A stretch of 64,000 bases of DNA, taken from IMG/VR virus record IMGVR_UViG_3300017909_001085, positions 32,001 to 96,000 of that record; one strand, 5' to 3'. This DNA is from a virus (taxonomy: Duplodnaviria; Caudoviricetes). Below are positions 971 to 32,368 of this stretch, piece after piece (position 1 is the stretch's first letter; each line of letters starts with the position of its first letter). The notes beneath the pieces were generated by a model, which worked only from the letters and a program-made list of their open reading frames with translations, was not told the DNA's origin and did not search any database. Both the position numbers and the translations under genes were made by a program.

Positions 971-3244
971 TTATGCGGCAATTTTTTCGATAAATTTGCT
1001 CAAGATTGCTCTGTTTTGCAACTTACCTTTCGCCGCTTTCTTGAATGCTGTAGTCAGTTTTTGCTTCGAAGCACCAACCTCAACATCAAGACCTTCATCG
1101 TCTACCTCAAGTGTCTTACCACCTTTGAGAATATACAGTTCATCAAGACCGCTGATTTTTGACACCGCACTCTTTTCTTTATTGAATTGCTTCTTCCAGT
1201 TCTCAAGTTCTACCCAAGCACTGGCGGCAGAAGAACCTGGTGTTTCAATATACTTGTTGAATGCATACTGAACATCAGAACGACCACTCGCAAGGAAGAA
1301 CCCCATAGTATTGAACCCGGTGCTTGCTTTAAGAGACATGTATAATGCTTTTGTCAAATCGCCACTATAATAATCGCTTGACTGACTTTTGATAGTCACA
1401 TTCTTAGATTTGTCACGGATGTAGAAGACACCTCTGGTGCTGATATCTGCTTCAGTTGAGTAGTACTCTTCACCATTGTATTTTTTGTCATACCCGATAA
1501 CTCCACTAGGTTTGTGACTTGAACCGTCTGTCAAGAAACATACGTTCATGACTTGGGCGCCAGTTGTCTTTTGAAACTTTTCAACCATCTTATGAGCAAC
1601 AATAACTGCGGCATCAAGTGGAGTACCACCAAGGTAGTATTTACGAGGCAGACCCATGTAAGCAAAGTCACCGTACCCATACTTTCTTGACCACATATGA
1701 GATAGTGCTACGCAAATCTCAACTGCTTGATTGAACTGCACTGTAGTCATTTTTGGACCAAACAGTTCTAACATAGTCACGCCTTTGACATTGAACTCAT
1801 TCAGATTAGTTGATTGTAAATCTTCTAAAGGTGTATTCACTGTTGAATGACGCTTGGCATATTCAGAAGAGAATGCATAAGCGGCGAAAGGTATTTGTGC
1901 TTTCTTACAGAACAATGCGAGACAAAGCAACTGCTCCATAGTACCTTTCATATTATCTGACATCGAACCAGACCAGTCAATAAAGAACATCATACCGTGG
2001 TTCTTACCATTCGGAAGATTAGTCTTTTTCATGAAGATATCTTCATTGTACTTGTATGAGTAAAGCAGATTTGAATTGATAACACCAGTCTTAGTAGTAT
2101 TTGCTCTGGCATAGATATCTGCCGCTTTCTTCATTTCAAATTCTTTATGAAGATAAGCAATCACTTTCTCATTTTTCTTTTTGAATTCTTTTGCGTTCTT
2201 AATGAGTTTCTCTTGAACGTCACTGACAGTCCAGTATTCCATCAGTTCTTTTCTAACTTCTGAAAAAGGAACTACAATCTTTTCGAAGTTGATAGTCTTC
2301 GGAATGTCATAGTACTTAGGAATCAAATCTTCGTTAGTCTCTACTAACTTCTTAGTACTTTTTTGAGATGCTTGGTCAGTGATAGACTTGACACCAGGAG
2401 CAGTACCGTCAGTATTTTCTGCTTTACCATCCATACCTTCTTTTGCTGGAGCAGGTGCTTTAGTCTCGGTCTTGTCTTCGCCATCATCGCCTTCTTCTTC
2501 TGGTGATGAAGCAGACTTACCTTCTTCTTCTGATTGTTCATCAGGAGTACCAGTAACAGCATTCATACCGTTACCTTGACCTTCTTGAGCATCGCCTTCA
2601 GACTGTTCATCATCTTGACCTTGTTCAGACTGAACTGGCATATTGTAAGCAGAAGTATCTTCTTGGTTCTGCTGTTTTTCTTCTAATTCTTTTTCGCAAT
2701 ACTCAAACAACTCTTTAGATAGTTCAATAACTTCTTCGAAAGTCTGAGTAGTCATTGCTCTATCGAAAAACTTCTGCTCAACATCATCGAATGTCAAATC
2801 AATTTGAGTACCGAGTTTTGCTTTCAGATTGAGACGGTCAATCAAAAGCATATCAGTGACAGGAACTTGTGAAGTACCGAAGAAATCTTTTTCTTGTAAC
2901 TGACCGTATGCCTGATAGAAAGGTTTCTTTAGACCAGGATACTTCTTTTGAATAAGACGCTCAATACGGGCATCTTCTACGACATTCACAACTGAATGAA
3001 AATTTTGTGTCTTGATTGGTAAGTTCTCCATACCGTCAAGAGGTGTATAGAGAGCATGAGCAACTTCATGACCAACAAACAAGTCTAGAGTTTTTGCGTC
3101 TAAGTCCTTCATAGTAGGAATACGCAATATACGATTTTTAACATCGAAACTAGCAGTATCGACATTCGCATACTCAACCGTCAAATTCTCTGTCGCTAGT
3201 AGTTTAGCGAGAGCAGACTTGACTTCTGTAATCTTGGTTGGCAT
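971..3244 (-). CDS. CobT-like protein: N-terminal HExxH metallopeptidase-like domain, acidic linker, C-terminal VWA domain
   Basis: GHEVAH, NVVEDARIE, MIDAS motif DWSGS and LTDG. Start placed at MPTK (3244) because of the GAGGTG RBS; the ORF track starts at 3268. Confidence 0.85.
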   Translation of the reverse strand: MPTKITEVKSALAKLLATENLTVEYANVDTASFDVKNRILRIPTMKDLDAKTLDLFVGHEVAHALYTPLDGMENLPIKTQNFHSVVNVVEDARIERLIQKKYPGLKKPFYQAYGQLQEKDFFGTSQVPVTDMLLIDRLNLKAKLGTQIDLTFDDVEQKFFDRAMTTQTFEEVIELSKELFEYCEKELEEKQQNQEDTSAYNMPVQSEQGQDDEQSEGDAQEGQGNGMNAVTGTPDEQSEEEGKSASSPEEEGDDGEDKTETKAPAPAKEGMDGKAENTDGTAPGVKSITDQASQKSTKKLVETNEDLIPKYYDIPKTINFEKIVVPFSEVRKELMEYWTVSDVQEKLIKNAKEFKKKNEKVIAYLHKEFEMKKAADIYARANTTKTGVINSNLLYSYKYNEDIFMKKTNLPNGKNHGMMFFIDWSGSMSDNMKGTMEQLLCLALFCKKAQIPFAAYAFSSEYAKRHSTVNTPLEDLQSTNLNEFNVKGVTMLELFGPKMTTVQFNQAVEICVALSHMWSRKYGYGDFAYMGLPRKYYLGGTPLDAAVIVAHKMVEKFQKTTGAQVMNVCFLTDGSSHKPSGVIGYDKKYNGEEYYSTEADISTRGVFYIRDKSKNVTIKSQSSDYYSGDLTKALYMSLKASTGFNTMGFFLASGRSDVQYAFNKYIETPGSSAASAWVELENWKKQFNKEKSAVSKISGLDELYILKGGKTLEVDDEGLDVEVGASKQKLTTAFKKAAKGKLQNRAILSKFIEKIAA

Positions 3245-3276
3245 TTCAGTCACCTCTTTTCTCATCATCTATAGTC

Positions 3277-3467: not shown

Positions 3468-3497
3468 ACTATAGCATGTAGGAATCTAATTTGTCAA
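3468..3497 (-). promoter_or_regulatory. Sigma70-type early promoter for the small membrane protein
   Basis: TTGACA-18 nt (ending CATGC)-TATAGT on the minus strand. Confidence 0.8.
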
Positions 3498-3995
3498 GCG
3501 TTTTCTCATAAAAATTTGTATTGTTCTTCTGACTGGTGCGCCAAGATTAACTGAAGTGACAGAGTGTCGCACACCACCTTCTTGAAATATTGCTCTATTA
3601 GGTTGAGGTTGAATTGCCTCTATTGTATCATCACTTTTTTCATACATGAAGTATCCACCATCATCTGCATCTTGTTCATTGAGATAAATTGTAAGTGCCG
3701 CTGAATGATTTCCATCATTATGCCACGGTATGTAACTAAACTGTGTCCAGTAATAAAACATAGGTGTGATATCATAGTGACCAAATTCTTCTTCTACTCT
3801 TGTTTGTAAGTAGTTCACAAGTTTGTCATCAGATATCTCATGTACAAGAACAGTATGACTTGTTCGCACAACATCAGAATCCCAAGATGCATTAGATTTT
3901 AGTGTGCATTCTGTTGAAGTATAAATTTCGTTTGATAGTGAAGTTGCTCTGAAAAATGTATCAGGTTCTAAAAAATTATCTATTAGTATTATCAT
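3486..3995 (-). CDS. 2OG-Fe(II) oxygenase, prolyl-4-hydroxylase-like
   Basis: WHND (HxD), LTIYLN, GGYF, distal H in VRHSV, and RRTIQ. Confidence 0.85.
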   Translation of the reverse strand: MIILIDNFLEPDTFFRATSLSNEIYTSTECTLKSNASWDSDVVRTSHTVLVHEISDDKLVNYLQTRVEEEFGHYDITPMFYYWTQFSYIPWHNDGNHSAALTIYLNEQDADDGGYFMYEKSDDTIEAIQPQPNRAIFQEGGVRHSVTSVNLGAPVRRTIQIFMRKRLTN

Positions 3996-4663
3996 CTCTT
4001 CATAATAGTTACATAGTATCTAAAATCATCATATCTAGATATTTTTGAACCTACACTTGCATATGGTATAGACGATGACCCGTCTGCAAAGTTTTCTAAC
4101 TTCTTAATACCACCTGCTACATGTGCAGTTATATCTGCATTATACAATTTTTTGAGACCATGTACTCTTTCTAAAATTTCAATAAAATTATTATATTCAC
4201 TTTCATGAGTTGAGTTCTGAACTATACACAAGATACCATCATCTGCTAGTGCTTGTGATAATCTAAGTAACAAAACACTCTTATTATCATATTGGTCAAA
4301 CGCATCGATAGATATAATTAGATTTGCGTCTTTCTGCTTTGATAAAATAAAATCTTTATAAAAAGAGATACCAGAGTGTCTATCTTTACATGCTTCAAGC
4401 ATGTTTTGGTCACTATTGTATCCTATACATTTTTTGAAGTTGTACTCACCTTTGAGACATGCTAGACCATATCCAAGACCACAGTTGATATCCATTGCTG
4501 TGATTTCAGAATGATTTGTTAAATAATCTTTGATAAAGTAACGATATGTTTGATATGAGTATTTTTCTATACTACACATCTCATCATAATCTTTTTGACC
4601 CCAATCTTCGAATTCGACTGGTACGTTACTAAAGATGTTTTTTGAATACGAATATTGGTTCAT
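3992..4663 (-). CDS. Class I SAM-dependent methyltransferase-like protein (atypical motif I)
   Basis: MDINCGLGYG, ANLIISIDAF, LADDGILCI, ADITAHV. Confidence 0.65.
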   Translation of the reverse strand: MNQYSYSKNIFSNVPVEFEDWGQKDYDEMCSIEKYSYQTYRYFIKDYLTNHSEITAMDINCGLGYGLACLKGEYNFKKCIGYNSDQNMLEACKDRHSGISFYKDFILSKQKDANLIISIDAFDQYDNKSVLLLRLSQALADDGILCIVQNSTHESEYNNFIEILERVHGLKKLYNADITAHVAGGIKKLENFADGSSSIPYASVGSKISRYDDFRYYVTIMKR

Positions 4664-6188
4664 ACTTTAACCAGATACCATTCACTTTGCAAAAATTCTT
4701 TGCTCGTGGTTTACCTGTCTCCTCATCAACTCTGTTACCGCCTGGCATCTGAGCGAGTGCCATCTTTAATGTAGTCACATACTCAAATCCAAGTTCTTTA
4801 CAGATACGAATGCTATCACCCTCAAGTGGCAACATCTCATTACCGAATTTTGCATCTGCAATATTCCATAGTAAGTATCTGTCGTTCTTTAAGTATTTAT
4901 ATGCATTTGTAAGTGTAGGTCTAAGAAAACCTTCTACCCACGTTTCATATTGATTGAATTTCTTGTACGATTGTTCCTCGTCATCAGAATACGCCTCTTT
5001 CGCAAAGTACGGTGGTGATGTGAAGACGAGGTCAAGGGTTTCATTCTCACATGAGAAATCTTCTGAACCGCATTGGTGTATTTCGTATGTGTTTGTATGC
5101 GGAAATAGACCTGTTCCTCTGTAAGTTTTCTCATTGAAAAACCTAGCGAGTTCATCATACTTTGTGCTTTTGGTACCGTCTTCTCTAATAACTGTATGGT
5201 CTGTATTAGGGTCGGTGCCAATATAGTGTATATTACGGTCGTCACTAACAGACATAGCACCGAGAATACGACCACCCCAACCAGCAGAGGGATCCCAAAT
5301 ACGAATAGTAGACTGTTCTTTGAAATGTTCAGTATATTTCTCATACAGATATTTAGCAGTCAGAGGCGGGAAATTAACAGCATATTGACACCATGATATA
5401 CGAAAGGGTTTGAACCCTAACGGAAAAATCTTCTGACCTTTTTTGAACAACATAATCTGATATACATCACAATCGTCTTTCATATTGACTTTGCAATTAT
5501 CAGGTATGTCTAGTTGCTCAATCTCTTCTCTAGTAACTTGCGCCCACTGTACGTTACGCAACTTGTCATCATAACCTGTGTACTCTTGTTCTTTATCAGG
5601 TTTTAACCAATAATCATGGGTATCATATTCTCTAGCATTATGCTCAAACCAACTGATAAAACTATTGCCATCACTAACCGTGTGTCGCTTAGTGCCAAAC
5701 TCCAAGAGTTCTTCTTTTTTAATAGGATTAGAATAGTGATAAAAACTATCACGCTTAAAATGCCTGTGACCATATGTGTATACCTTCTGAAACAAATCTT
5801 CATCTACGAAATGGTCATAGATAGACTTTGCTTTATTTATGTCATTATACACAATCTTCGTTTTCATCATTGTAGGAAACCACTGATTAGCGGCATTACC
5901 TACAACTGATGTGTTACGAATAACATCACACTTACCTGTCTCTTCATCAAGACACTCAAACTCATGAACAGGAAAACTTGACATCTGATTGAACTGGTCA
6001 ATAATCTTATCTTCTGACCAACCAACTCTTGGTGGTAGACCTAGTTCATCCCATGAGTATGCTACTTCTTTTCGCATATCACGCAACCATTGTCTAAATT
6101 CTTCATCTGACATCCACAAGACTTCTTCAAATGTCTTGTTTACTTCATGCTCTAACAGATAACTGTTTCGCTCATAAAAATGCTTCAC
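4629..6188 (-). CDS. Amino-type (N4-C/N6-A) DNA methyltransferase-like protein with a long N-terminal extension
   Basis: Motif I WDPSAGWGGR, YIGTDPN, motif IV DLVFTSPPYF, C-terminal EPIFVFKK. Confidence 0.8.
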   Translation of the reverse strand: MKHFYERNSYLLEHEVNKTFEEVLWMSDEEFRQWLRDMRKEVAYSWDELGLPPRVGWSEDKIIDQFNQMSSFPVHEFECLDEETGKCDVIRNTSVVGNAANQWFPTMMKTKIVYNDINKAKSIYDHFVDEDLFQKVYTYGHRHFKRDSFYHYSNPIKKEELLEFGTKRHTVSDGNSFISWFEHNAREYDTHDYWLKPDKEQEYTGYDDKLRNVQWAQVTREEIEQLDIPDNCKVNMKDDCDVYQIMLFKKGQKIFPLGFKPFRISWCQYAVNFPPLTAKYLYEKYTEHFKEQSTIRIWDPSAGWGGRILGAMSVSDDRNIHYIGTDPNTDHTVIREDGTKSTKYDELARFFNEKTYRGTGLFPHTNTYEIHQCGSEDFSCENETLDLVFTSPPYFAKEAYSDDEEQSYKKFNQYETWVEGFLRPTLTNAYKYLKNDRYLLWNIADAKFGNEMLPLEGDSIRICKELGFEYVTTLKMALAQMPGGNRVDEETGKPRAKNFCKVNGIWLKYEPIFVFKKHL

Positions 6189-6412
6189 TCAATAACCTCA
6201 ACTTCACTTTCTGTTTCTATTACTACTCTCGCACCGCAAGATAGAATAGGTTTCTCATTACCACCATATCGAACTACACTGTCGCCATGTATCTTTACAG
6301 CATGACAGTATGTGTTTGAGCGACCTTGCTTTATTGTAATAACAGGTTCATTTGTACCATGCTTCTTATTCGCTCTAATCTTATGCTGGTTTACATGTAT
6401 ATAGGTTTTCAT
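6185..6412 (-). CDS. Conserved T4-like phage hypothetical protein, 75 aa
   Basis: IHVNQHKIRANKK...EPVITIK...LSCGARVVIET. Stop overlaps the methyltransferase start. Confidence 0.75.
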   Translation of the reverse strand: MKTYIHVNQHKIRANKKHGTNEPVITIKQGRSNTYCHAVKIHGDSVVRYGGNEKPILSCGARVVIETESEVEVIE

Positions 6413-6421
6413 ATTACTCTC

Positions 6422-6451
6422 ACTATAGCATTATTGGACTGGTTTTGTCAA
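6422..6451 (-). promoter_or_regulatory. Internal sigma70-type promoter upstream of the 75-aa gene and methyltransferases
   Basis: TTGACA-18 nt (ending AATGC)-TATAGT, embedded in the 3' end of the 185-aa oxygenase gene. Confidence 0.65.
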
Positions 6452-6980
6452 ATACTAAATCAAAACTTTTCCATGTTAATGTCATTCGACAATTGTTTTT
6501 TACCGATGTTGACAGTCCTCGATGCGGCATCACAGAACTAAAAATCACAACTCGTCCCGGAACAAAGTCAACTACACCCATCTGAGTTTCAAATCCTCTA
6601 ATACCTTCATGATGATAATTTACCATGTAAAGTATCGTATAGTTCTCATCGAGGTTTTTTGTTCGATGTCTACTGTCAATGTGCATAGAACCATCTAGTT
6701 CATATGTCTGTCCATTGATATAGACATGTTGTTTATCTAAGTCTTTTTCTTTGACTTCAAACTTATAATATTCTTTAATTTTCTGAAAAATAAATTGTTG
6801 GTCAGGACAATCTAAAATATGAGTGTAATCATTCAATCTTGTGCTACACCAAAATATTGCATCATCTGGATTGTTTGACACATTACCATAGTAGAATAAA
6901 TTATCATGATACTTTGTTGCTACTCTTGCTACAAAATCATCATCAAACAAATTATCAACATAATCTATTCTTTTCATCAT
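6423..6980 (-). CDS. 2OG-Fe(II) oxygenase
   Basis: YINGQT, MHID (HxD), FVPGRVVIF, PHRG, CRMTLTWK. Confidence 0.8.
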   Translation of the reverse strand: MMKRIDYVDNLFDDDFVARVATKYHDNLFYYGNVSNNPDDAIFWCSTRLNDYTHILDCPDQQFIFQKIKEYYKFEVKEKDLDKQHVYINGQTYELDGSMHIDSRHRTKNLDENYTILYMVNYHHEGIRGFETQMGVVDFVPGRVVIFSSVMPHRGLSTSVKNNCRMTLTWKSFDLVFDKTSPIML

Positions 6981-7744
6981 GCCGCTACATTCCAGAATAA
7001 ATTGAGTTTACTTCTATCCATGTTTTCTTGTATCACTTTCCATGCTTTAGCATCATACTCAGGCGCACTTGGAAACGGTGGTGCTTCACTTTCTTTGACA
7101 GGTTTATCGAATTTATACGGTGATACCCACAACTTCGCACGCCCTTGTTGTCTTTCATCTAATTTATGTCCTGTCTGTATCACATGCACTTCTGCTTCTG
7201 GGAATGCAAGTTGCAACCCTCGGTTCAGAGTTCCTGATGACCCTACTGTCCAGATTACTTCTGGCATAACATCTAGCGACTGCGCTACTTTCACTATACT
7301 TCCTAGAACCCAATCGTGTTCTAGTCCTAAAGGCAACGTCCTTCGGGTTTGTGGACTCTCTCTGCGATATTGCTCTGCTTTTGACAGAGTGACATTTAAC
7401 ATACCCATCTTTACCCATTCAATACGACCTCCATACTCCATGTATTTCTGTTGATGCCATGTGGGTTCTTTTCTATCTGCCCAAAAACAAGTTGATTTCT
7501 TACCGTACTTTTGACAAACATATGCTAACGAGATTGGTCCCCATCCGACTTTGTTTGAACCTCCAAAGACCCACTCTTCACAGTCTGTGTCTCTGATAAG
7601 TTTATCGATGAACCTGATTTTGCTTCCTGCAGGAAGTACATCATCACGCACCACAATAACATCATCATGATTGACAAGCATAGGCGGGTCGTAAGGGTCA
7701 GACCAGTCACTTACTAACTCTAAATAATCTTCTGCAACTATCAT
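6977..7744 (-). CDS. PLP-dependent enzyme, fold type II (ACC deaminase / D-Cys desulfhydrase / TrpB-like)
   Basis: VVRDDVLPAGSKIR (putative Schiff-base Lys), VGSSGTL phosphate loop, YDAKAW, LFWNVA. Confidence 0.75.
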   Translation of the reverse strand: MIVAEDYLELVSDWSDPYDPPMLVNHDDVIVVRDDVLPAGSKIRFIDKLIRDTDCEEWVFGGSNKVGWGPISLAYVCQKYGKKSTCFWADRKEPTWHQQKYMEYGGRIEWVKMGMLNVTLSKAEQYRRESPQTRRTLPLGLEHDWVLGSIVKVAQSLDVMPEVIWTVGSSGTLNRGLQLAFPEAEVHVIQTGHKLDERQQGRAKLWVSPYKFDKPVKESEAPPFPSAPEYDAKAWKVIQENMDRSKLNLFWNVAA

Positions 7745-8849
7745 TCGCTTCTATATCCACTACTAAATGTATTCTTGTTTCATCACCATTGTTAATCGCC
7801 ATATGTGGTTTGCGAATATCTAGATACCACAACTCACCTTCTTTCATATTAACAACATGCTTCTCACCATGCATATCCCACGATGTAAACTCCATCTTCG
7901 GATTTGTAATCACTGGAATATGTAGTCTCATAATCTTACCATCTGCAACACCAAGATAAGGGTCAACTTGGTCAGTGTGTCTTTGCAGTTCACCACCGCC
8001 TGGAGCAAGTGACATAAATCTTATTCGTTCAATATTATCTGTAGGTATTCTTGATAGCAAGTCATTTACATACGGAAACTGTTCTCGCAAAGGTGTGTCT
8101 TCACACTCCCACTCTTCCCATGTGTCATTTTCTGCTTTCCATTTCTTGCTCATCTCTACAGGTTTTGCAATAAATGATGGGTCTGGTCTATAACCTCTCA
8201 ATGATATTGCTGACCATGAACCTTTTTTATTGTAATTTGAGTAATGATTAGTGTACTCAAGTGTTATTTTTTCTAGTTCTTTGCGTATAATCGATGTATT
8301 GATAGTGTCAAACATGCATTTACTTATAGAAACCGTCTCAGCGCCGTCTATGGGCGGATGAGAGCGTTCTTCGAATGAAGTGCTAGAATTACGAAAGAAT
8401 ACGCTATATATCTCTGCAAACGTAGTTATTTTACTACCAACATAGTCAAAACCTGCATCTTGTGCAAACTTGACTGCTTTTTCATCTTCTGACCACACAA
8501 ACAACCAGCAGTTTCTATCGCTATAGTGACTGATATAGTTCTTTACATTCTCTGTGTATGCAGATATATTCTGAATTACAACATCACCTGGTTCTTTATA
8601 ACCAATAATAGTCTCACCATGCATTGTAATCTTCGAACGGACTTTTGCTTCAGTGATGTTAATCCAAGCATCACCTGCTTTGCGTAGAGAACCTTTATCT
8701 AAAAAGTCTGCTACATTATTCTTCTTGAACTGTGCAAAAGGACTATCAGTGTATGAGTTGTAATGGTCATACTCTGCAGTAATTTCTTTTAGATAATCTA
8801 ACTGATAACCTTTTTGCCAGTCTTTCATTTCTACTTCTGTTTGTGTCAT
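7707..8849 (-). CDS. Two-domain protein: N-terminal GNAT-like region fused to an Asp/Asn beta-hydroxylase-type 2OG-Fe(II) oxygenase
   Basis: C-terminal half has LAPGGGELQRHTD, MRLHIP, PHMAINNGDETRIHLVVD. N-terminal half has WLFVWSEDEKAVKFAQDAGFDYVG, resembling GNAT motif B. The GNAT call is weaker than the oxygenase call. Confidence 0.7.
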   Translation of the reverse strand: MTQTEVEMKDWQKGYQLDYLKEITAEYDHYNSYTDSPFAQFKKNNVADFLDKGSLRKAGDAWINITEAKVRSKITMHGETIIGYKEPGDVVIQNISAYTENVKNYISHYSDRNCWLFVWSEDEKAVKFAQDAGFDYVGSKITTFAEIYSVFFRNSSTSFEERSHPPIDGAETVSISKCMFDTINTSIIRKELEKITLEYTNHYSNYNKKGSWSAISLRGYRPDPSFIAKPVEMSKKWKAENDTWEEWECEDTPLREQFPYVNDLLSRIPTDNIERIRFMSLAPGGGELQRHTDQVDPYLGVADGKIMRLHIPVITNPKMEFTSWDMHGEKHVVNMKEGELWYLDIRKPHMAINNGDETRIHLVVDIEANDSCRRLFRVSK

Positions 8850-9439
8850 ATATCTGACCTTTCTTTTACACTATCAAAAAAATCCTCTTCAATAGCAAAA
8901 CTAACTGAACATCTTGGACCCGTAATACTTGGGCAGTGTTTCCACCATTTTGGAATATATATCATATCATTTGGATATAGTGTAAACTCTTCTATCACAT
9001 CATCTTCATCTATTCCTTGCTGAACTTTCCAAAGGGTTTCGCCTTGTATTTGCCATATGTAAGTATGCATATCATCATTATGAAAATTAAGTCCATCACT
9101 TTCTGCAACAAGAGAAACAAATAAATGACAATTTACTCTATGTCTAGTTTTATCAATTAGATGTTTTTCTTCTATAATTTTTCTCACATATGCAACTTGA
9201 GGTATTAACTCTGCATTATGTGTAGCGAAAGAAGGAAATATATTAGTATCATTATCAACTTCAATTTGATTTTGTGATACTAATCTAACTGCACGACCTG
9301 ACTTAGAAATAACTTCTGACCATTCTTTTGAGTTTCTATAATCAACCGATGCCTGAAAATTCTGAACTATGTCAGACCAGTCAAATCGCTCAAACTGCAT
9401 TTGTCCTATCTCGCCAATTTTTGGTAACTCATGCCACAT
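8846..9439 (-). CDS. JmjC/cupin-4 type oxygenase
   Basis: FHNDD, IWQIQGETLWKV, LYPNDMIYIPKWWKH, RCSVSF. Confidence 0.8.
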   Translation of the reverse strand: MWHELPKIGEIGQMQFERFDWSDIVQNFQASVDYRNSKEWSEVISKSGRAVRLVSQNQIEVDNDTNIFPSFATHNAELIPQVAYVRKIIEEKHLIDKTRHRVNCHLFVSLVAESDGLNFHNDDMHTYIWQIQGETLWKVQQGIDEDDVIEEFTLYPNDMIYIPKWWKHCPSITGPRCSVSFAIEEDFFDSVKERSDI

Positions 9440-9962
9440 CTGGTAACTTTAACTTTCCCTCTTTAATGAGTTTCTTTATCTTCTTGTCTCTTGCTTTGAT
9501 GCCTCTATCAAGCACCAACTTAGATGCTCTCTGTGTAAAGTCAATACCCATCATGTGGTCCATCTCATGCAAGAATATTCGTGCAGTCAATCCTTCATAT
9601 TTCATTTTTTTGTTCTCACCATTCTCATCATGATATGATACTACGCAAAACTTAGGTCTACGAATAGATAAGAACAAACCAGGCCATGTCAAACAACCTT
9701 CTTTCAGATGTTCAAGTTCAGGACTCATAGTAAGCACTTGTGGGTTGAATACATTTACACGAAAATCATCTTTACCCATAACGAACACTTTAGCATCAAT
9801 ACCAACTTGATTAGCAGACAGACCTACGCCGTTGTAGTGTTTCATATTGAACCACAACTGGTCAGCAAGTTCTTTCGGATCCATAAATGGATTATCAAAA
9901 TCAAATGCCTTTGGTTTGTATAACGCATCATTTGGTGGCGTTAATTCTAAAACTTTACTCAT
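9429..9962 (-). CDS. def: Peptide deformylase
   Basis: All three PDF motifs present: GVGLSANQVG, EGCLT, HEMDH. Probable start is MSKVL at 9962. Confidence 0.95.
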   Translation of the reverse strand: MSKVLELTPPNDALYKPKAFDFDNPFMDPKELADQLWFNMKHYNGVGLSANQVGIDAKVFVMGKDDFRVNVFNPQVLTMSPELEHLKEGCLTWPGLFLSIRRPKFCVVSYHDENGENKKMKYEGLTARIFLHEMDHMMGIDFTQRASKLVLDRGIKARDKKIKKLIKEGKLKLPDVA

Positions 9963-10075
9963 CAAGATACCTGTACTGCAATATAAAGACAAATAGCAAT
10001 AATAAGTAATTTACCATAGTCTAAATCAAAATCAGTACCTTCACCAATTTTTTCTTTTATCTCACTAAACTTCAT
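9962..10075 (-). CDS. Small protein with C-terminal hydrophobic segment, 37 aa
   Basis: Manual translation MKFSEIKEKIGEGTDFDLDYGKLLIIAICLYIAVQVS. AGGAG RBS; TGATG overlap with the def start. Confidence 0.65.
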   Translation of the reverse strand: MKFSEIKEKIGEGTDFDLDYGKLLIIAICLYIAVQVS

Positions 10076-10499
10076 CGTTTTCTCCTTCTATAGTAATATT
10101 TAGGCCGGTGTTTATAAAGATTTCACAATCAGTGTCTTCCCAACCTAATTCATAAACACCATCAAAACTATCTTCATCAAATGCTGTTTCAAACTCATCA
10201 AGCATCTCTGCAGTTACATCTTTTGAACCTTCAAAGTCTAACCATACACCATCGTCAAGATAGTCCATCTCAAGACCTTCGTACATGTCAGGTTCACAGA
10301 CACCGTTTTCGCTGTCTTCTCTAAGTTCTTGCAGTTCGTCTGCAGTTACTTCACCAACCCATTTACCCCATCGCCAACCTTGGTCCATAGTAATCCAGTA
10401 TTTGTGTTCACCCTCTTCTTTATAAAAAGTAGTCAATTCACTGATTGCTTTTTTGTTGTCTGGTTCTACGCTAATTTTATACAATTTTTCTTCGCTCAT
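10065..10499 (-). CDS. Acidic hypothetical protein
   Basis: 144-aa ORF whose start overlaps the g46 stop; GWRWG motif. Confidence 0.7.
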   Translation of the reverse strand: MSEEKLYKISVEPDNKKAISELTTFYKEEGEHKYWITMDQGWRWGKWVGEVTADELQELREDSENGVCEPDMYEGLEMDYLDDGVWLDFEGSKDVTAEMLDEFETAFDEDSFDGVYELGWEDTDCEIFINTGLNITIEGENDEV

Positions 10500-12211: not shown

Positions 12212-13275
12212 ACTACTGTATTACTCGCTTCTACATATAGTCTTTTCATATCTGTTTTTATTCTTTCTTTGTCTGCAGTTGTATCAACTTCATCGACATA
12301 TGTGTTAAGTAATGATAGTGTGTCATCTAACTGTAAGTTCTTATCATCAACAAATGTAGCATCAAAATCTGTAAAATCTTCTACAATTGTCAACTCATGA
12401 ACCCCAACAGTATACAACTTATCTATCACTTTGTCAAACTCTTTTGCGTTAATCTTGTTGATTACTACCACCTTTACATAGTGGTCTTTGAATTCTGTCG
12501 CATCAAAGTTTTCGTATGACTTATCTCTATCGTTGTATTCTAACTTCTTGAAAATACTGTATGGGTTTTCGATAAACTCTAACTCTCTAGTCTCTGTATC
12601 AAAAATATGAAACCCACGCTTGTCACCATAGTCAGACCAAGTCATCTGATATGGGTTACCTAGATATGTAATGTTGTCTTGCGTTGATTTGTGATGAAAG
12701 TGACCGCTGAATGCACAGTCAAACTTATTGAATAACTTTCTATCTAGACCGTGGTCAAAGTTTGTGAACCCACGATACATTGTAAAACCTTTGACTTCTA
12801 GATGACCCATGAGAACTTGTGCATCTGTCTTTTCAATCATCTGCATTGTTTCATCATAATTCTCAGGACAAATCCAAGGCACAAAAAGCATCTTACATCC
12901 ATCGAACTCTACTTCAGTTGATTTCTCATAAATCCAAGGTTCTAACTTACCATCGAATGAAGTGAATAAACTATTCATGCTGTTGACTTCATTTGTGTTC
13001 TTGTAGTAAGTATCGTGATTACCTATGATAACATGAGTATCTACACCCATGCTACCTAGTTTCCATACAAAGTCATGTCTAAACTTCTGTAGTGTTTTGA
13101 AGTTGATAAACTTTCGTCTATCTGTAATATCACCTAGATGAATACATGTGGTAATATTGTTCTCTTCTAAGTATGGAAAAAATGTGTTATCATAAAACTT
13201 AAAAAAGTAATCATTAAATACTTCACTATCATTTCTGGCACCAAAGTGTGTGTCAGTTATTAGTGCTATTTTCAT
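12208..13275 (-). CDS. g47: Recombination endonuclease subunit gp47 (Mre11/SbcD-like)
   Basis: ITDTHFG, HLGD, GNHD, SGHFH. Confidence 0.97.
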   Translation of the reverse strand: MKIALITDTHFGARNDSEVFNDYFFKFYDNTFFPYLEENNITTCIHLGDITDRRKFINFKTLQKFRHDFVWKLGSMGVDTHVIIGNHDTYYKNTNEVNSMNSLFTSFDGKLEPWIYEKSTEVEFDGCKMLFVPWICPENYDETMQMIEKTDAQVLMGHLEVKGFTMYRGFTNFDHGLDRKLFNKFDCAFSGHFHHKSTQDNITYLGNPYQMTWSDYGDKRGFHIFDTETRELEFIENPYSIFKKLEYNDRDKSYENFDATEFKDHYVKVVVINKINAKEFDKVIDKLYTVGVHELTIVEDFTDFDATFVDDKNLQLDDTLSLLNTYVDEVDTTADKERIKTDMKRLYVEASNTVV

Positions 13276-14698
13276 ATTCACTGTTCCATTTGTTAATCAA
13301 ATCTTTATGCTTCCATGTAGCATTATCTGTAAACTTATGTGCTTTCGGTAGTCTACCATACATGGATAGAAATTCTTCTACATTCTGTTTTGGCAACATA
13401 TCAAGTGCATAAAACACTTGATTAAAGTTGTCACTACCAAATATTCTCCAGTCCCAACCGACCTGTTCTCCTAAGTCTTCACATACTAACACACGGTCAC
13501 TGTTTATGTCAATAAGTTTTTGCAGATTTACCGGTAAAACTGAATTCTCTACATCTTGCCAGAATGGACTTGTTACTTCACAGTTTACATAATGCAAACG
13601 AATAAACATAAACATCTGTTCGAACATCTGTTGAATTTTATCATTATAACCCTTTTGTGCTTCAGATGTAGTTGAGTTTACATACTTCACTAACAGTTTT
13701 GCTTGTTGCAATCCAACACCAATAGCAGTTGCCTCTAAGGGTTCAAAAAAGTGTGATGATAAACCAATCAATACAACATTTTTATGAAAAGTCTTATTAT
13801 AGTGACCTGCTTCAAACTTAAATGTTCTACCTACTTTTGGTTCAAACCCTAATTTTTCTGTGACTTCTTTTACTGCATCTTCATATGAGATGTGCTTTGA
13901 ACTGTACGCATATCCATTACCCATTCTTTCAGATGTAGGTATACGCCACATCCATCCTGCAGACATCTTTTGTGCAGTTGTGAAAACAGGATAGTTATCA
14001 CCCTCATGAGGACACTGAAATGCAAAAGCACTATCTACAAACATGTCATCTTGCTTTGAAATGAACTGAAACTCTGAAATTTCATTTGCAATAAGTCTTT
14101 TGAATCCAGACGCATCGACAAATAATTCTGCTTGATATTCTGTAGTTTCACTTTCTATGCTTGTTACATGTCCATCATCATGATTTACTTTTGTAATCAA
14201 ATCATCGTAAAACGCAATGCCTAACATTTTACATCTCTTATGTAACCACTTATTCAGTTTTTGAGTATCAAAATGAAATTGATTAGGAAGACTATCTTTG
14301 TCATCTACACGCTGTTCTAGATAATTTGGTGGCAGTAGTTCTAAGTTAGATAACCCATATGCCATACCTGCCATTTGGTCAAAGTCAATACCTTGTTCAT
14401 TTGTATCAGTTACTAGAGAGTGTACATAATCTTCACCTTCTTTAACCCAGTCTTTGAAATGAACACCGAACTTAAAAGTTGCACCACACTCTTGAACTAT
14501 CTCTTTGTGTTCTACACCTAACAGATGCATAAACTGCATCACATGTTCAGTACTACTCTCACCAACACCTACAATACCAAGTTCTGATGAACCTACAACA
14601 TATACATCTAGACCAGGTAATGATTTTTTTAGATATATTGCGGCAAATAAACCTGCATTACCTGCCCCCAATACACATACAGTTTTTCTATTTAACAT
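13253..14698 (-). CDS. Flavin-dependent halogenase (tryptophan halogenase family)
   Basis: GAGNAG FAD motif, GVGES, GATFKFGVHFKDW (position of the catalytic Lys), FVDASGF, GWMWRIP (WxWxIP), FFEPLEAT. Confidence 0.88.
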   Translation of the reverse strand: MLNRKTVCVLGAGNAGLFAAIYLKKSLPGLDVYVVGSSELGIVGVGESSTEHVMQFMHLLGVEHKEIVQECGATFKFGVHFKDWVKEGEDYVHSLVTDTNEQGIDFDQMAGMAYGLSNLELLPPNYLEQRVDDKDSLPNQFHFDTQKLNKWLHKRCKMLGIAFYDDLITKVNHDDGHVTSIESETTEYQAELFVDASGFKRLIANEISEFQFISKQDDMFVDSAFAFQCPHEGDNYPVFTTAQKMSAGWMWRIPTSERMGNGYAYSSKHISYEDAVKEVTEKLGFEPKVGRTFKFEAGHYNKTFHKNVVLIGLSSHFFEPLEATAIGVGLQQAKLLVKYVNSTTSEAQKGYNDKIQQMFEQMFMFIRLHYVNCEVTSPFWQDVENSVLPVNLQKLIDINSDRVLVCEDLGEQVGWDWRIFGSDNFNQVFYALDMLPKQNVEEFLSMYGRLPKAHKFTDNATWKHKDLINKWNSEYENSTNN

Positions 14699-15322: not shown

Positions 15323-15796
15323 TTAATGTTTTGTTATCTTGTGCTTGTTGTACATATATTCCTCAACTTGACTTGTTTCATCTAGACTATCATCTAGACC
15401 TAACCTCTCGTTAAGGTCATCAACAACGTCTTTCAACTTTCTCAATCTTCTTGCTTTCATTTCATAATCATCTTCAGGTTCATCCATTCTTTCAACAGGT
15501 GTTGATTTCAATCTTTCTATGATAGTATGATAGTAATTTATAACATCATCTCTAGGCATTGTCACGGTAATAATGTTACTCTTTGCAACATGAAATATTT
15601 GATTTTCTGAGAATGATTCCCAAGGTCCGAATGTTGCATTTTCAAATGCACCCTCACCATTATCTGATGGTGACATCCACTTATGAATTCTCACAGGTTC
15701 TATAATTGTAGCATAGTTCTTTTCTTCATCTACTCGTAATTTACATACGAGACTTTCACCATTTGTTAATTTTATGAGTTTAATTGGTGTTGTCAT
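15323..15796 (-). CDS. Conserved T4-like hypothetical protein between uvsW and g55 (Sm-like N-terminus)
   Basis: IKLIKLTNGESLVC...PW...; synteny with marine T4-like phages. Confidence 0.75.
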   Translation of the reverse strand: MTTPIKLIKLTNGESLVCKLRVDEEKNYATIIEPVRIHKWMSPSDNGEGAFENATFGPWESFSENQIFHVAKSNIITVTMPRDDVINYYHTIIERLKSTPVERMDEPEDDYEMKARRLRKLKDVVDDLNERLGLDDSLDETSQVEEYMYNKHKITKH

Positions 15797-31586: not shown

Positions 31587-32368
31587 TATGTATTCCCCGG
31601 AAAGTCAGTCCACACTTCTGTGAATCCAAAATCATCATTTGCATCTGCTGAAGTAGGATCAGGTGTAGTTGTTAATCTTGATGTAGGTCCTGTTGATGTA
31701 CCAATTGTCAATGCATTATTTTCTAAGAATGCATCTGCTTGCACCGTCTTGATAATACCTTGCTCCTTCACTGGTCCATAAAAATTCATTTTAACTGTAA
31801 ACGTCATAGTATATATGATACTTCTACGAGTGGCAAAATCACCCTCATAATCATCCTCATATGTTAGACCTTCTAATATCAGAGGAAAGTCATCTTTGAT
31901 ACCCATCTCTGGAACTGCGTTTATAGTTAGTGTATATGCTGGTGTAAAAAACGGCAATATTTGTTCAACTATTTGTAGTGCATCTTCTTGATTTTTCGCC
32001 ATGATAAAAAGACTAAAATTGAGATTATATGGTACAGATTGAAATTGTCTTTTAATTTCTGTGCTTGTAGCACCAACAGTCTTACGCACATTCATCTTAT
32101 TGACTTTACGCTGACCATCATACTGAAATCCAGATATCTCAAAACCCATTCTTGGTAGAGTGAGTTGATTTATATTTGTAAGATTAGGGTTCTCATAAAG
32201 TCTAGCAAGAAACTTTTGCTTAGGACCATACGCAAGAGGTACTTTCAAAGATTGTATTGCTGTACCTGTACCATCTTTTCTTCTTACATGAATATCGTTA
32301 AAAACGCTACCAAACGCAATAACACTTCTTCTAATTGTTTCGTGATAAAAGTGATTTTGTCCTAACAT
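31586..32368 (-). CDS. g15: Tail sheath stabiliser gp15
   Basis: FYHETIRR, VPLAYGPKQKF, LPRMGFE, QIVEQILPFFTP. Confidence 0.97.
   Translation of the reverse strand: MLGQNHFYHETIRRSVIAFGSVFNDIHVRRKDGTGTAIQSLKVPLAYGPKQKFLARLYENPNLTNINQLTLPRMGFEISGFQYDGQRKVNKMNVRKTVGATSTEIKRQFQSVPYNLNFSLFIMAKNQEDALQIVEQILPFFTPAYTLTINAVPEMGIKDDFPLILEGLTYEDDYEGDFATRRSIIYTMTFTVKMNFYGPVKEQGIIKTVQADAFLENNALTIGTSTGPTSRLTTTPDPTSADANDDFGFTEVWTDFPGNT

Follow-up and report, generated by a model that had tools for sequence, protein, structure and literature searches.

A methyltransferase-centred gene module of T4-like phages and its possible role in DNA hypermodification

The hypermodification of thymidine in phage DNA involves a 5-hydroxymethyldeoxyuridine (5-hmdU) kinase, aGPT-Pplase and decarboxylases that depend on pyridoxal phosphate (PLP) (Lee et al., 2018, PMC5889632; 2021, PMC8989533). 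The present analysis concerns a stretch of 64,000 nucleotides from a virus of the Caudoviricetes (the window; positions 32,001 to 96,000 of IMG/VR record IMGVR_UViG_3300017909_001085) and, within it, three minus-strand genes encoding a 519-residue amino-methyltransferase (4629-6188), a 255-residue fold-type-II PLP enzyme (6977-7744) and a 380-residue protein in which a GNAT fold is joined to an AspH-type oxygenase dependent on Fe(II) and 2-oxoglutarate (2OG) (7707-8849). These three genes, with four domains between them, constitute a functional unit that is evolutionarily coupled, phage-restricted and centred on the amino-methyltransferase fold. With the thymidine pathways this module would share that it is phage-encoded, probably post-replicative and combinatorial in gene content, and that PLP enzymes act on amino-acid-derived groups. 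It differs from them in having no kinase, pyrophosphorylase or 5-hmdU route (neither Pfam nor PHROGs gave a match to the 5-hmdU kinase or aGPT-Pplase in 3486-10499, the remaining genome not having been searched with specific models), in its scaffold, which is the fold of an exocyclic-amine methyltransferase, and in its PLP enzyme, which is a compact protein of fold type II (PALP) found physically fused to the transferase.

To our knowledge, the characterised hypermodifications of amino-acid type all lie on pyrimidine C5 or on 7-deazaguanine, and none involves an exocyclic-amine methyltransferase together with a PLP enzyme. In the synthesis of microcin C, MccD is a methyltransferase-fold enzyme that transfers a 3-amino-3-carboxypropyl (acp) group and MccE combines a PLP decarboxylase with a GNAT. 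The module is similar in bringing together an S-adenosylmethionine (SAM)-dependent methyltransferase fold, a PLP enzyme and a GNAT fold, which in microcin C act on the SAM-derived aminocarboxypropyl group, but the substrate there is a peptidyl-nucleotide, the PLP fold type of MccE is different and the analogy is one of logic only. In the synthesis of wybutosine, acp transfer by TYW2 is followed by hydroxylation by the JmjC enzyme TYW5 and methylation by TYW4. A nucleobase there first receives an acp group from a methyltransferase-fold enzyme and is then acted on by a 2OG/JmjC hydroxylase and a SAM methyltransferase; the window also has a JmjC gene and a second methyltransferase gene. Wybutosine, however, is made on tRNA in eukaryotes and archaea without a PLP enzyme, and the JmjC and second methyltransferase genes of the window are not conserved with the core. 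The Mom protein of phage Mu, a GNAT-fold enzyme that makes N6-carbamoylmethyl-adenine, also ties this fold to modification of the exocyclic amine of a DNA base; Mom acts alone, whereas the GNAT-fold domain of the module is joined to an oxygenase and shows no acetyl-CoA loop.

A precedent for non-methyl chemistry is provided by CmoX of Synechococcus phage S-B43, the C5-cytosine enzyme of a carboxymethyl-cytosine system that uses carboxy-SAM (PMC12783734). Like the methyltransferase of the module it is a marine phage enzyme of methyltransferase fold, and it puts a non-methyl group on DNA; it differs in acting on C5 of cytosine, in using carboxy-SAM and in having neither a PLP enzyme nor an AspH-type oxygenase. 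ParB-like proteins have been shown experimentally to be partners of phage DNA base-modifying enzymes (PMC13229309). The fusions of a ParB-like domain with a DNA methyltransferase in phrog_498 and the ParB-dependent T-dioxygenases (PMC13229309) are alike in pairing such a domain with an enzyme of this kind. In the present family, by contrast, a PLP domain is inserted in or adjacent to the methyltransferase, and the T4-like version has a different N-terminal domain of 260 residues in place of ParB. Full-text searches of the literature found no description of the module, and its proteins are named in databases only as 'hypothetical protein', 'DNA modification methylase' or 'TrmN6'.

Fusion and co-occurrence of the three core genes

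Proteins of about 1084 residues in which the methyltransferase, the GNAT/oxygenase and the PLP enzyme form a single chain are present in NCBI, JGI, ENA and Logan data. In one of these (P0123) the methyltransferase domain (159-397, 33% identity) is followed by the whole of the 380-residue protein (435-808, 33%) and by the PLP enzyme (830-1084, 56%). The open reading frame (ORF) of the triple fusion is intact in two metagenome contigs (L181 and L182), and in the second of them genes for a DNA methyltransferase and a helicase come after it. Other architectures include methyltransferase-PLP (about 680 residues), oxygenase-PLP (444-547 residues), PLP followed by methyltransferase, and oxygenase-YunG-PLP. 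Among the best 150 representatives of the PLP family clustered at 50% identity, 30 are at least 380 residues long and at least 17 of these 30 carry the methyltransferase of the module.

The association is also present in cultured phages. When the PLP enzyme was compared by tblastn with 50,697 phage records, matches were found only in two Erythrobacter phages (vB_EliS-R6L and ZS04) and in the Microcystis phage Mae-JY30, and in all three the matching gene bears the annotation 'DNA modification methylase'. In Mae-JY30 consecutive genes encode a ParB-like protein (244 residues), a methyltransferase (294 residues) and a PALP protein (236 residues). In R6L a single protein of 807 residues, gp1 (KY006853.1, locus 4816-7238), has a ParB-like N-terminus (phrog_620, E 3e-38) and the methyltransferase motifs LDPFAGGS and SCPPY. 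The ParB-like domain was recognised in both phages by PHROGs, and no significant ParB match to R6L gp1 came from Pfam at E <= 1. The Mae-JY30 methyltransferase aligns with R6L gp1 in two blocks (3-112 with 241-381, and 117-275 with 636-795) and the approximately 254 residues between the gp1 blocks are a PALP domain. The alignment thus places the insertion of the PLP domain within the methyltransferase fold, between its motifs II and III. In the original description of R6L, ORF 1 was taken as a single-domain CcrM-like methylase (PMC5463345). Both R6L gp1 and the Mae-JY30 genes belong to phrog_498. A search that finds the window gene at E 3e-180 found no homologue of the 380-residue protein in either the R6L or the Mae-JY30 genome, so that the methyltransferase and the PLP enzyme make up the minimal unit.

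In IMG/VR the PLP enzyme is encoded on 455 contigs and a relative of the methyltransferase on at least 593. The loci examined were the 80 best of each scan, those of the PLP enzyme being drawn from the 455 contigs. In the 80 loci of the PLP enzyme, tblastn with all proteins of the window found the 380-residue protein, the PLP enzyme and the 519-residue methyltransferase recurring together down to 53% identity. The conserved order is (peptide deformylase), 380-residue protein, PLP enzyme, 0-2.8 kb of variable DNA, methyltransferase and a protein of 720-780 residues. Other arrangements were also seen: in the T4-like contigs L094-L096 the PLP gene and then the methyltransferase gene come directly after gp46, and the methyltransferase-PLP pair occurs in further phage backgrounds (L026, L027, L030 and L031). 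In L026 and L030 (L030:8337-12020) the neighbours of the pair are an FkbM-type methyltransferase, a conserved 324-residue ORF without a family match and a SET-domain protein of 98 residues.

A census by hidden Markov models covered 65 loci with enough flanking DNA. The PLP enzyme is accompanied by the full 380-residue protein in 46 of these and is the only partner in nine, while in four (L119, L120, L125 and L126) a split and reordered series of oxygenase, GNAT-fold ORF and methyltransferase lacks the PLP enzyme. The oxygenase domain alone is present in one locus and the GNAT-fold ORF alone in two. These proportions are biased toward the PLP enzyme because half of the loci were chosen through it. 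In the methyltransferase tree nearly all members of one large clade have the full module; within the remaining clade, which is mixed, the PLP enzyme has been gained or lost at least four times. As the partners vary across loci and across the tree, the methyltransferase is the constant component and the PLP enzyme and the GNAT/oxygenase protein are optional.

The family is essentially restricted to phages. In the genomes of 185,579 prokaryote species the PLP enzyme was found at six loci only, all on contigs of metagenome-assembled genomes (MAGs), and the methyltransferase at 17. The methyltransferase loci include full-length copies (37-39% identity, N-terminal domain included) in one Devosia isolate (L195, D. 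epidermidihirudinis E84 contig4) and two alphaproteobacterial MAGs (L196 and L200), with no PLP enzyme or 380-residue partner within 6 kb in any of the three.

Domain composition of the core proteins

The methyltransferase consists of a conserved N-terminal domain (residues 1-260, fold unknown) and an amino-methyltransferase domain. It matches Pfam N6_N4_Mtase (PF01555) with 30.4 bits against a cut-off of 26.7 (34 bits in a whole-genome search) and phrog_12517/498/67 in PHROGs. Motif I (WDPSAGWGG, at about residue 300), motif II (GTDPN) and motif IV (TSPPY, at about 392) are present, and across 14 homologues motifs I (DPSxGWGG), II and IV are invariant. Motif I comes before motif IV, an order that is permuted relative to the Pfam model. 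A Ser or Cys preceding PPY is typical of N4-cytosine enzymes, and stand-alone homologues of the domain in Staphylococcus and Vibrio phages are annotated as DNA or N4-cytosine methylases. The AlphaFold2 model (predicted local distance difference test (pLDDT) 78.8) has the class I Rossmann-like methyltransferase fold, with Trm11 (Z 14.4, root-mean-square deviation (rmsd) 3.1 Å, 179 residues aligned) and TrmN (Z 13.6) as its best matches; Trm14, m1A58 enzymes, lmo1582, METTL5 and PrmC are also matched, as is M.BseCI (Foldseek E 2e-6). Searches of PDB sequences with single sequences and with profiles gave nothing for this protein or for the PLP enzyme. For the N-terminal domain ESM Atlas returned nothing informative (best score 0.81), and Pfam at E <= 1 gave nothing for N-terminal domains. 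In a domain-restricted search homologues of these 260 residues were found only together with the same methyltransferase domain.

The idea that a single methyltransferase had been split or frameshifted across 4629/4663 was rejected because the 519-residue protein has motifs I-IV and the C-terminal conserved blocks and ends where its homologues end. Variants of 781-786 residues (L191:5869-8211 and L192:1911-4268) have a C-terminal extension of about 180 residues, for which there was no match among PDB sequences.

The PLP enzyme of the window scores 17.6 bits with PALP (PF00291), against a cut-off of 35. Homologues are above it (40.6 bits for the R6L insert, 46.3 for Mae-JY30 and 44 for P0142), and the window protein matches phrog_7093 (E 8e-35). 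The putative PLP lysine is K42 in GSKIR, to which GGTKRR corresponds in R6L gp1; a phosphate loop, VGSSGT (167-172), and a conserved C-terminal YDAK can also be recognised. In 26 sequences of the family K42, S169-S170-G171, D231 and K233 are invariant, and Y230 and A232 are present in at least 90%. Neighbours in ESM Atlas are viral PALP clusters. The nearest NCBIfam models are those of Ser/Thr dehydratase, Thr synthase, diaminopropionate ammonia-lyase and 3-hydroxy-Asp ammonia-lyase, all far below their cut-offs (top match NF006094, 35.6 bits against 331), and by these cut-offs the protein belongs to no named subfamily (Ser/Thr dehydratase, Thr synthase, CysK or ACC deaminase). A search of 1.84 billion representative proteins with its profile yields only 1471 clusters (E <= 0.001), and the enzyme thus forms a separate, compact subfamily. 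More than 1100 homologues are present in a metagenome protein set, all of them unnamed.

The 380-residue protein has an N-terminal GNAT fold (about 16-158) and a C-terminal Fe(II)/2OG oxygenase of the AspH/proline-hydroxylase type (about 166-375). The C-terminal half matches Pfam Asp_Arg_Hydrox (PF05118) with 60.6 bits against a cut-off of 22.6. In the AlphaFold2 model (pLDDT 89.7) this domain has the cupin/DSBH fold, its nearest structures being AspH (Z 16.1), L-proline cis-4-hydroxylase (Z 15.6, 25% identity) and proline 3-hydroxylase, and the iron triad and 2OG-binding Arg (H291-x-D293, H349 and R359) are invariant in the family alignment. Residues 16-157 of the model match GNAT structures (2pc1_A, Z 11.3, rmsd 3.2 Å, 138 residues aligned; 2fia_B, Z 10.3), and as Pfam gave no GNAT match for the N-terminal domain even at E <= 1 the assignment is at the level of the fold only. 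A second and weaker AspH-type cupin ORF (194 residues; G000:C1:120953-121387) lies in the same genome outside the window and matches the profile of the 380-residue family at E 6.5e-8.

A candidate DNA base modification and its rivals

An earlier note on this DNA had suggested that the string of genes may be an undescribed base-modification pathway built around an SPPY amino-methyltransferase, or else a pathway that tailors virion or host proteins. Base modification around this enzyme is the best reading, in view of the ParB fusions, the DNA-methylase family, the confinement to phages and the DNA methyltransferase and helicase neighbours of one fused form; the eight-gene version is not supported. 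We see roughly an even chance that the three-gene module carries out a post-replicative modification of a DNA base on its exocyclic amine, with tailoring of amino-acid type. That DNA is the target is suggested by the ParB fusions, by the match to a DNA-methylase family and by the DNA methyltransferase and helicase genes next to the triple fusion in L182. The product probably bears an amino-acid-like group because both partners belong to enzyme families with amino-acid substrates: the oxygenase is nearest to AspH and to hydroxylases of free proline, and the PLP enzyme to Ser/Thr and 3-hydroxy-Asp dehydratases.

In the proposed mechanism the methyltransferase would bind SAM and flip out a DNA base, the exocyclic amine of which (cytosine N4 or adenine N6) would enter the S/C-PPY pocket. 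The PLP enzyme and the GNAT-fold/AspH-type hydroxylase would act with it on an amino-acid-like group. Two routes to a non-methyl product may be envisaged. By the first, the 3-amino-3-carboxypropyl group of SAM would be moved to the base and its side chain tailored in optional steps by the hydroxylase, the PLP enzyme and the GNAT-fold domain; of the two this route fits best the pattern of a constant transferase and optional partners. By the second, hydroxylation and PLP-dependent beta-elimination would give an aminoacrylate-type electrophile that is captured by the flipped-out amine, much as heterocyclic beta-substituted alanines are made by enzymes of the cysteine-synthase type. The side chain could be an aminocarboxypropyl group derived from SAM or one of alanyl type derived from a beta-hydroxy amino acid, and the product would be a post-replicative hypermodification that shields phage DNA from host nucleases. 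More tentatively, and at somewhat less than even chances, the module may represent a class of DNA hypermodification not known before, in which an enzyme of methyltransferase fold, with a PLP active site of its own or in a partner, would link a side chain of amino-acid type to the cytosine or adenine exocyclic amine in phage DNA, and the AspH-type hydroxylase and GNAT fold would diversify it. If so, this would be the first PLP-coupled nucleic-acid 'methyltransferase', and one that is widespread in uncultured marine and freshwater T4-like phages. Hypermodifications of phage DNA shape the arms race with restriction and CRISPR and are a source of useful enzymes. Direct tests can be made, since the cultured Erythrobacter and Microcystis phages have the minimal form of methyltransferase and PLP enzyme and natural fusions in a single polypeptide exist.

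Several observations weigh against hypermodification of DNA by a module of this kind. The SAM-binding motifs are fully canonical, and plain methylation is therefore the default expectation. The acetyl-CoA loop (Q/RxxGxG/A) is not visible after the predicted beta-4 of the GNAT-fold domain when the alignment is inspected by eye. In structure the methyltransferase domain is most like tRNA m2G and m1A enzymes, JGI labels some of the fusion proteins 'TrmN6', and by these structural matches the target may be RNA. The methyltransferase is without partners in three of the 65 census loci and in the Devosia isolate genome; because such variants exist beside others with only the PLP enzyme or only the GNAT/oxygenase, no partner is obligatory, and no simple linear pathway fits every variant. 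Adjacency in syntenic T4-like genomes is weak evidence when taken alone, and the case for a module therefore rests on the fusions, which are decisive. It is for this reason very improbable that the genes are functionally unrelated neighbours in a hypervariable T4-like region. Synteny alone would hold neighbours together there, and 2OG oxygenases are frequent as mobile cassettes among marine T4-like phages, but the triple and double fusions, the domain insertion and the shuffled order in unrelated phage backgrounds contradict such an explanation for the three core genes. Whether all eight genes of the string form one dedicated hypermodification pathway is a separate matter. They are tightly packed and overlapping, two of the closest relatives (L015 and L018) retain all five accessory genes and two more (L019 and L020) four of the five, and wybutosine synthesis offers a precedent in which an acp side chain is hydroxylated by a JmjC enzyme and then methylated at the expense of SAM. 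Against this, the five accessory genes are absent outside the subclade of the window, within it their alleles are often 23-51% identical where the core is 82-96% identical, and elsewhere the same slots hold dCMP deaminase, DUF4326/SLOG proteins or other 2OG oxygenases. The PLP, GNAT-oxygenase and methyltransferase genes, whose co-occurrence the earlier note had proposed as a check, are thus found adjacent, reordered and fused, while the other five assort independently, being confined to one subclade and there often represented by divergent alleles. A pathway of all eight genes is therefore not supported, and we regard it as improbable.

Two further explanations accept the module and differ in what it makes or acts on. 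Unlikely, although the more serious of the two, is plain methylation of DNA to N4-methylcytosine or N6-methyladenine, with the PLP enzyme and the oxygenase serving the cofactor through removal of S-adenosylhomocysteine (SAH), a product that inhibits, or through supply or recycling of methionine or SAM in nutrient-poor hosts. It would agree with the canonical motifs I, II and IV, with the occurrence of the methyltransferase alone in some phages and bacterial contigs, and with insertion of the PLP domain between motifs II and III, beside the SAM-binding half of the fold; SAM and SAH are moreover themselves alpha-amino acids. However, no methyltransferase is known with a PLP domain for cofactor turnover, a diffusible by-product would need no repeated covalent fusion in at least four topologies, and the GNAT-fold domain and the AspH/proline-hydroxylase-type oxygenase would be left without an obvious role. 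The other explanation, that the module acts on RNA, either tRNA or rRNA, or on a protein such as a translation factor or virion protein, is less likely again. The nearest solved folds are tRNA m2G10 and m2G6 methyltransferases, PrmC is among the structural matches and PrmC/HemK and L3 glutamine methyltransferase among weak NCBIfam matches, AspH- and proline-hydroxylase-type oxygenases and JmjC enzymes usually act on amino acids and proteins, and the module adjoins a peptide deformylase gene in most loci. Yet the fold is common to all amino-methyltransferases, so the similarity to tRNA enzymes is uninformative on DNA versus RNA, and the window lacks tRNA genes. DNA as the target is favoured by the Pfam match, which falls in the N6/N4 methylases of DNA, by the genes for a DNA methyltransferase and a helicase beside the fused form, and by the ParB-like domains fused or adjacent to the methyltransferase in R6L and Mae-JY30.

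Accessory genes, genome context and environmental distribution

The window belongs to a 125.9-kb IMG/VR viral contig, about 70% complete, with genes of a T4-like myovirus (gp46/gp47-like SbcCD, gp55 late sigma factor, gp41-type helicase, major head protein, CobS and peptide deformylase). The nearest relatives of its capsid protein are in Methylophilales phage Melnitz (67%) and Pelagibacter phage HTVC008M (65%), in neither of which searches of the phage records found a copy of the cluster genes; megablast of the cluster against the 50,697 phage records gave no match. The eight ORFs at 3486-9439, all on the minus strand, were confirmed as the earlier note had described them, co-directional and mostly overlapping: six of the seven junctions overlap (by 4, 38, 4, 4, 35 and 4 nt) and the remaining one is a 10-nt gap (6412/6423). 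Its enzyme labels held for the JmjC protein, the AspH-type oxygenase, the N6_N4_Mtase and the 169-residue oxygenase, which are above Pfam cut-offs, and are weak for the 185-residue oxygenase and the 223-residue methyltransferase.

The five accessory genes are variable cassettes of the window's subclade and may contribute further tailoring or be unrelated. The JmjC-type cupin (197 residues, 8846-9439; JmjC_2, PF08007, 37 bits against a cut-off of 22) is inserted between the peptide deformylase gene and the core. Among the 80 PLP loci tblastn found it only where the PLP enzyme is 63-91% identical to that of the window, and not in all of these, often as an allele of 29-44% identity; more distant loci lack it. 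The putative 2OG oxygenase of 185 residues (6423-6980) is assigned from phrog_274 (E 2e-18) and an HxD...H pattern seen by eye, with no Pfam match and no BLAST similarity to the other oxygenases analysed here. The adjacent protein of unknown function (75 residues, 6185-6412; phrog_8676, E 7e-21) was found in close relatives of the window only. A probable class I SAM methyltransferase of 223 residues (3992-4663) is a weak assignment (Methyltransf_23, 22.8 bits against a cut-off of 27; PDB 3l8d, E 9e-4) and is found in the subclade only, at 23-92% identity. The 2OG-Fe(II) oxygenase of 169 residues (3486-3995; 2OG-FeII_Oxy_3, 33.8 bits against a cut-off of 27) is present in only a few of these close relatives.

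Elsewhere the slot of the 185-residue gene is taken by 2OG-FeII_Oxy_3/5 proteins, by dCMP deaminase or by a DUF4326/SLOG protein. A dCMP deaminase gene (PF00383, about 75-80 bits) stands directly before the methyltransferase in many related T4-like contigs (among them L024, L041, L059, L064 and L083), where it may reflect synteny alone or a tie to cytosine chemistry, and in one lineage a DUF4326 + YAcAr (SLOG-family) protein is encoded between the PLP and methyltransferase genes (L049:10741-11388). Promoter- and terminator-like sites are no commoner in the window than in shuffled sequence. Near-consensus TTGACA-N18-TATAGT/TATTAT sites with an extended -10 TG were seen on the minus strand at 6451-6422, 3497-3468 and 3306-3277, pointing along the genes, and one of these three lies just upstream of the 75-residue gene and the methyltransferase.

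Viral contigs that carry the module number in the hundreds and come from oceans, estuaries and lakes. For the core stretch, 61-65% of sampled words were found in seawater and estuary metagenomes from nine studies (2014-2025), a possible source study being excluded. Contigs from two metatranscriptome libraries of different studies align with 5089-6352 and 8252-8827 at 95-100% identity. They lie on the methyltransferase, 75-residue and 380-residue genes and cover only small parts of the stretch, DNA carry-over is possible, and they give a weak hint that these three genes may be transcribed.

Downstream of the string lies a gene (971-3268) for a protein of 765 residues that matches phrog_459, 'peptidase' (E 1e-191), without a Pfam match, and that follows the module as its conserved neighbour in most related contigs. 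On the other side of the cluster, a tryptophan-halogenase-like gene (13253-14698; phrog_2928, E 5e-90) is located beside the gp47 homologue and a gene of phrog_471, 'methylamine utilization' (15323-15796), beside the gp55 homologue.

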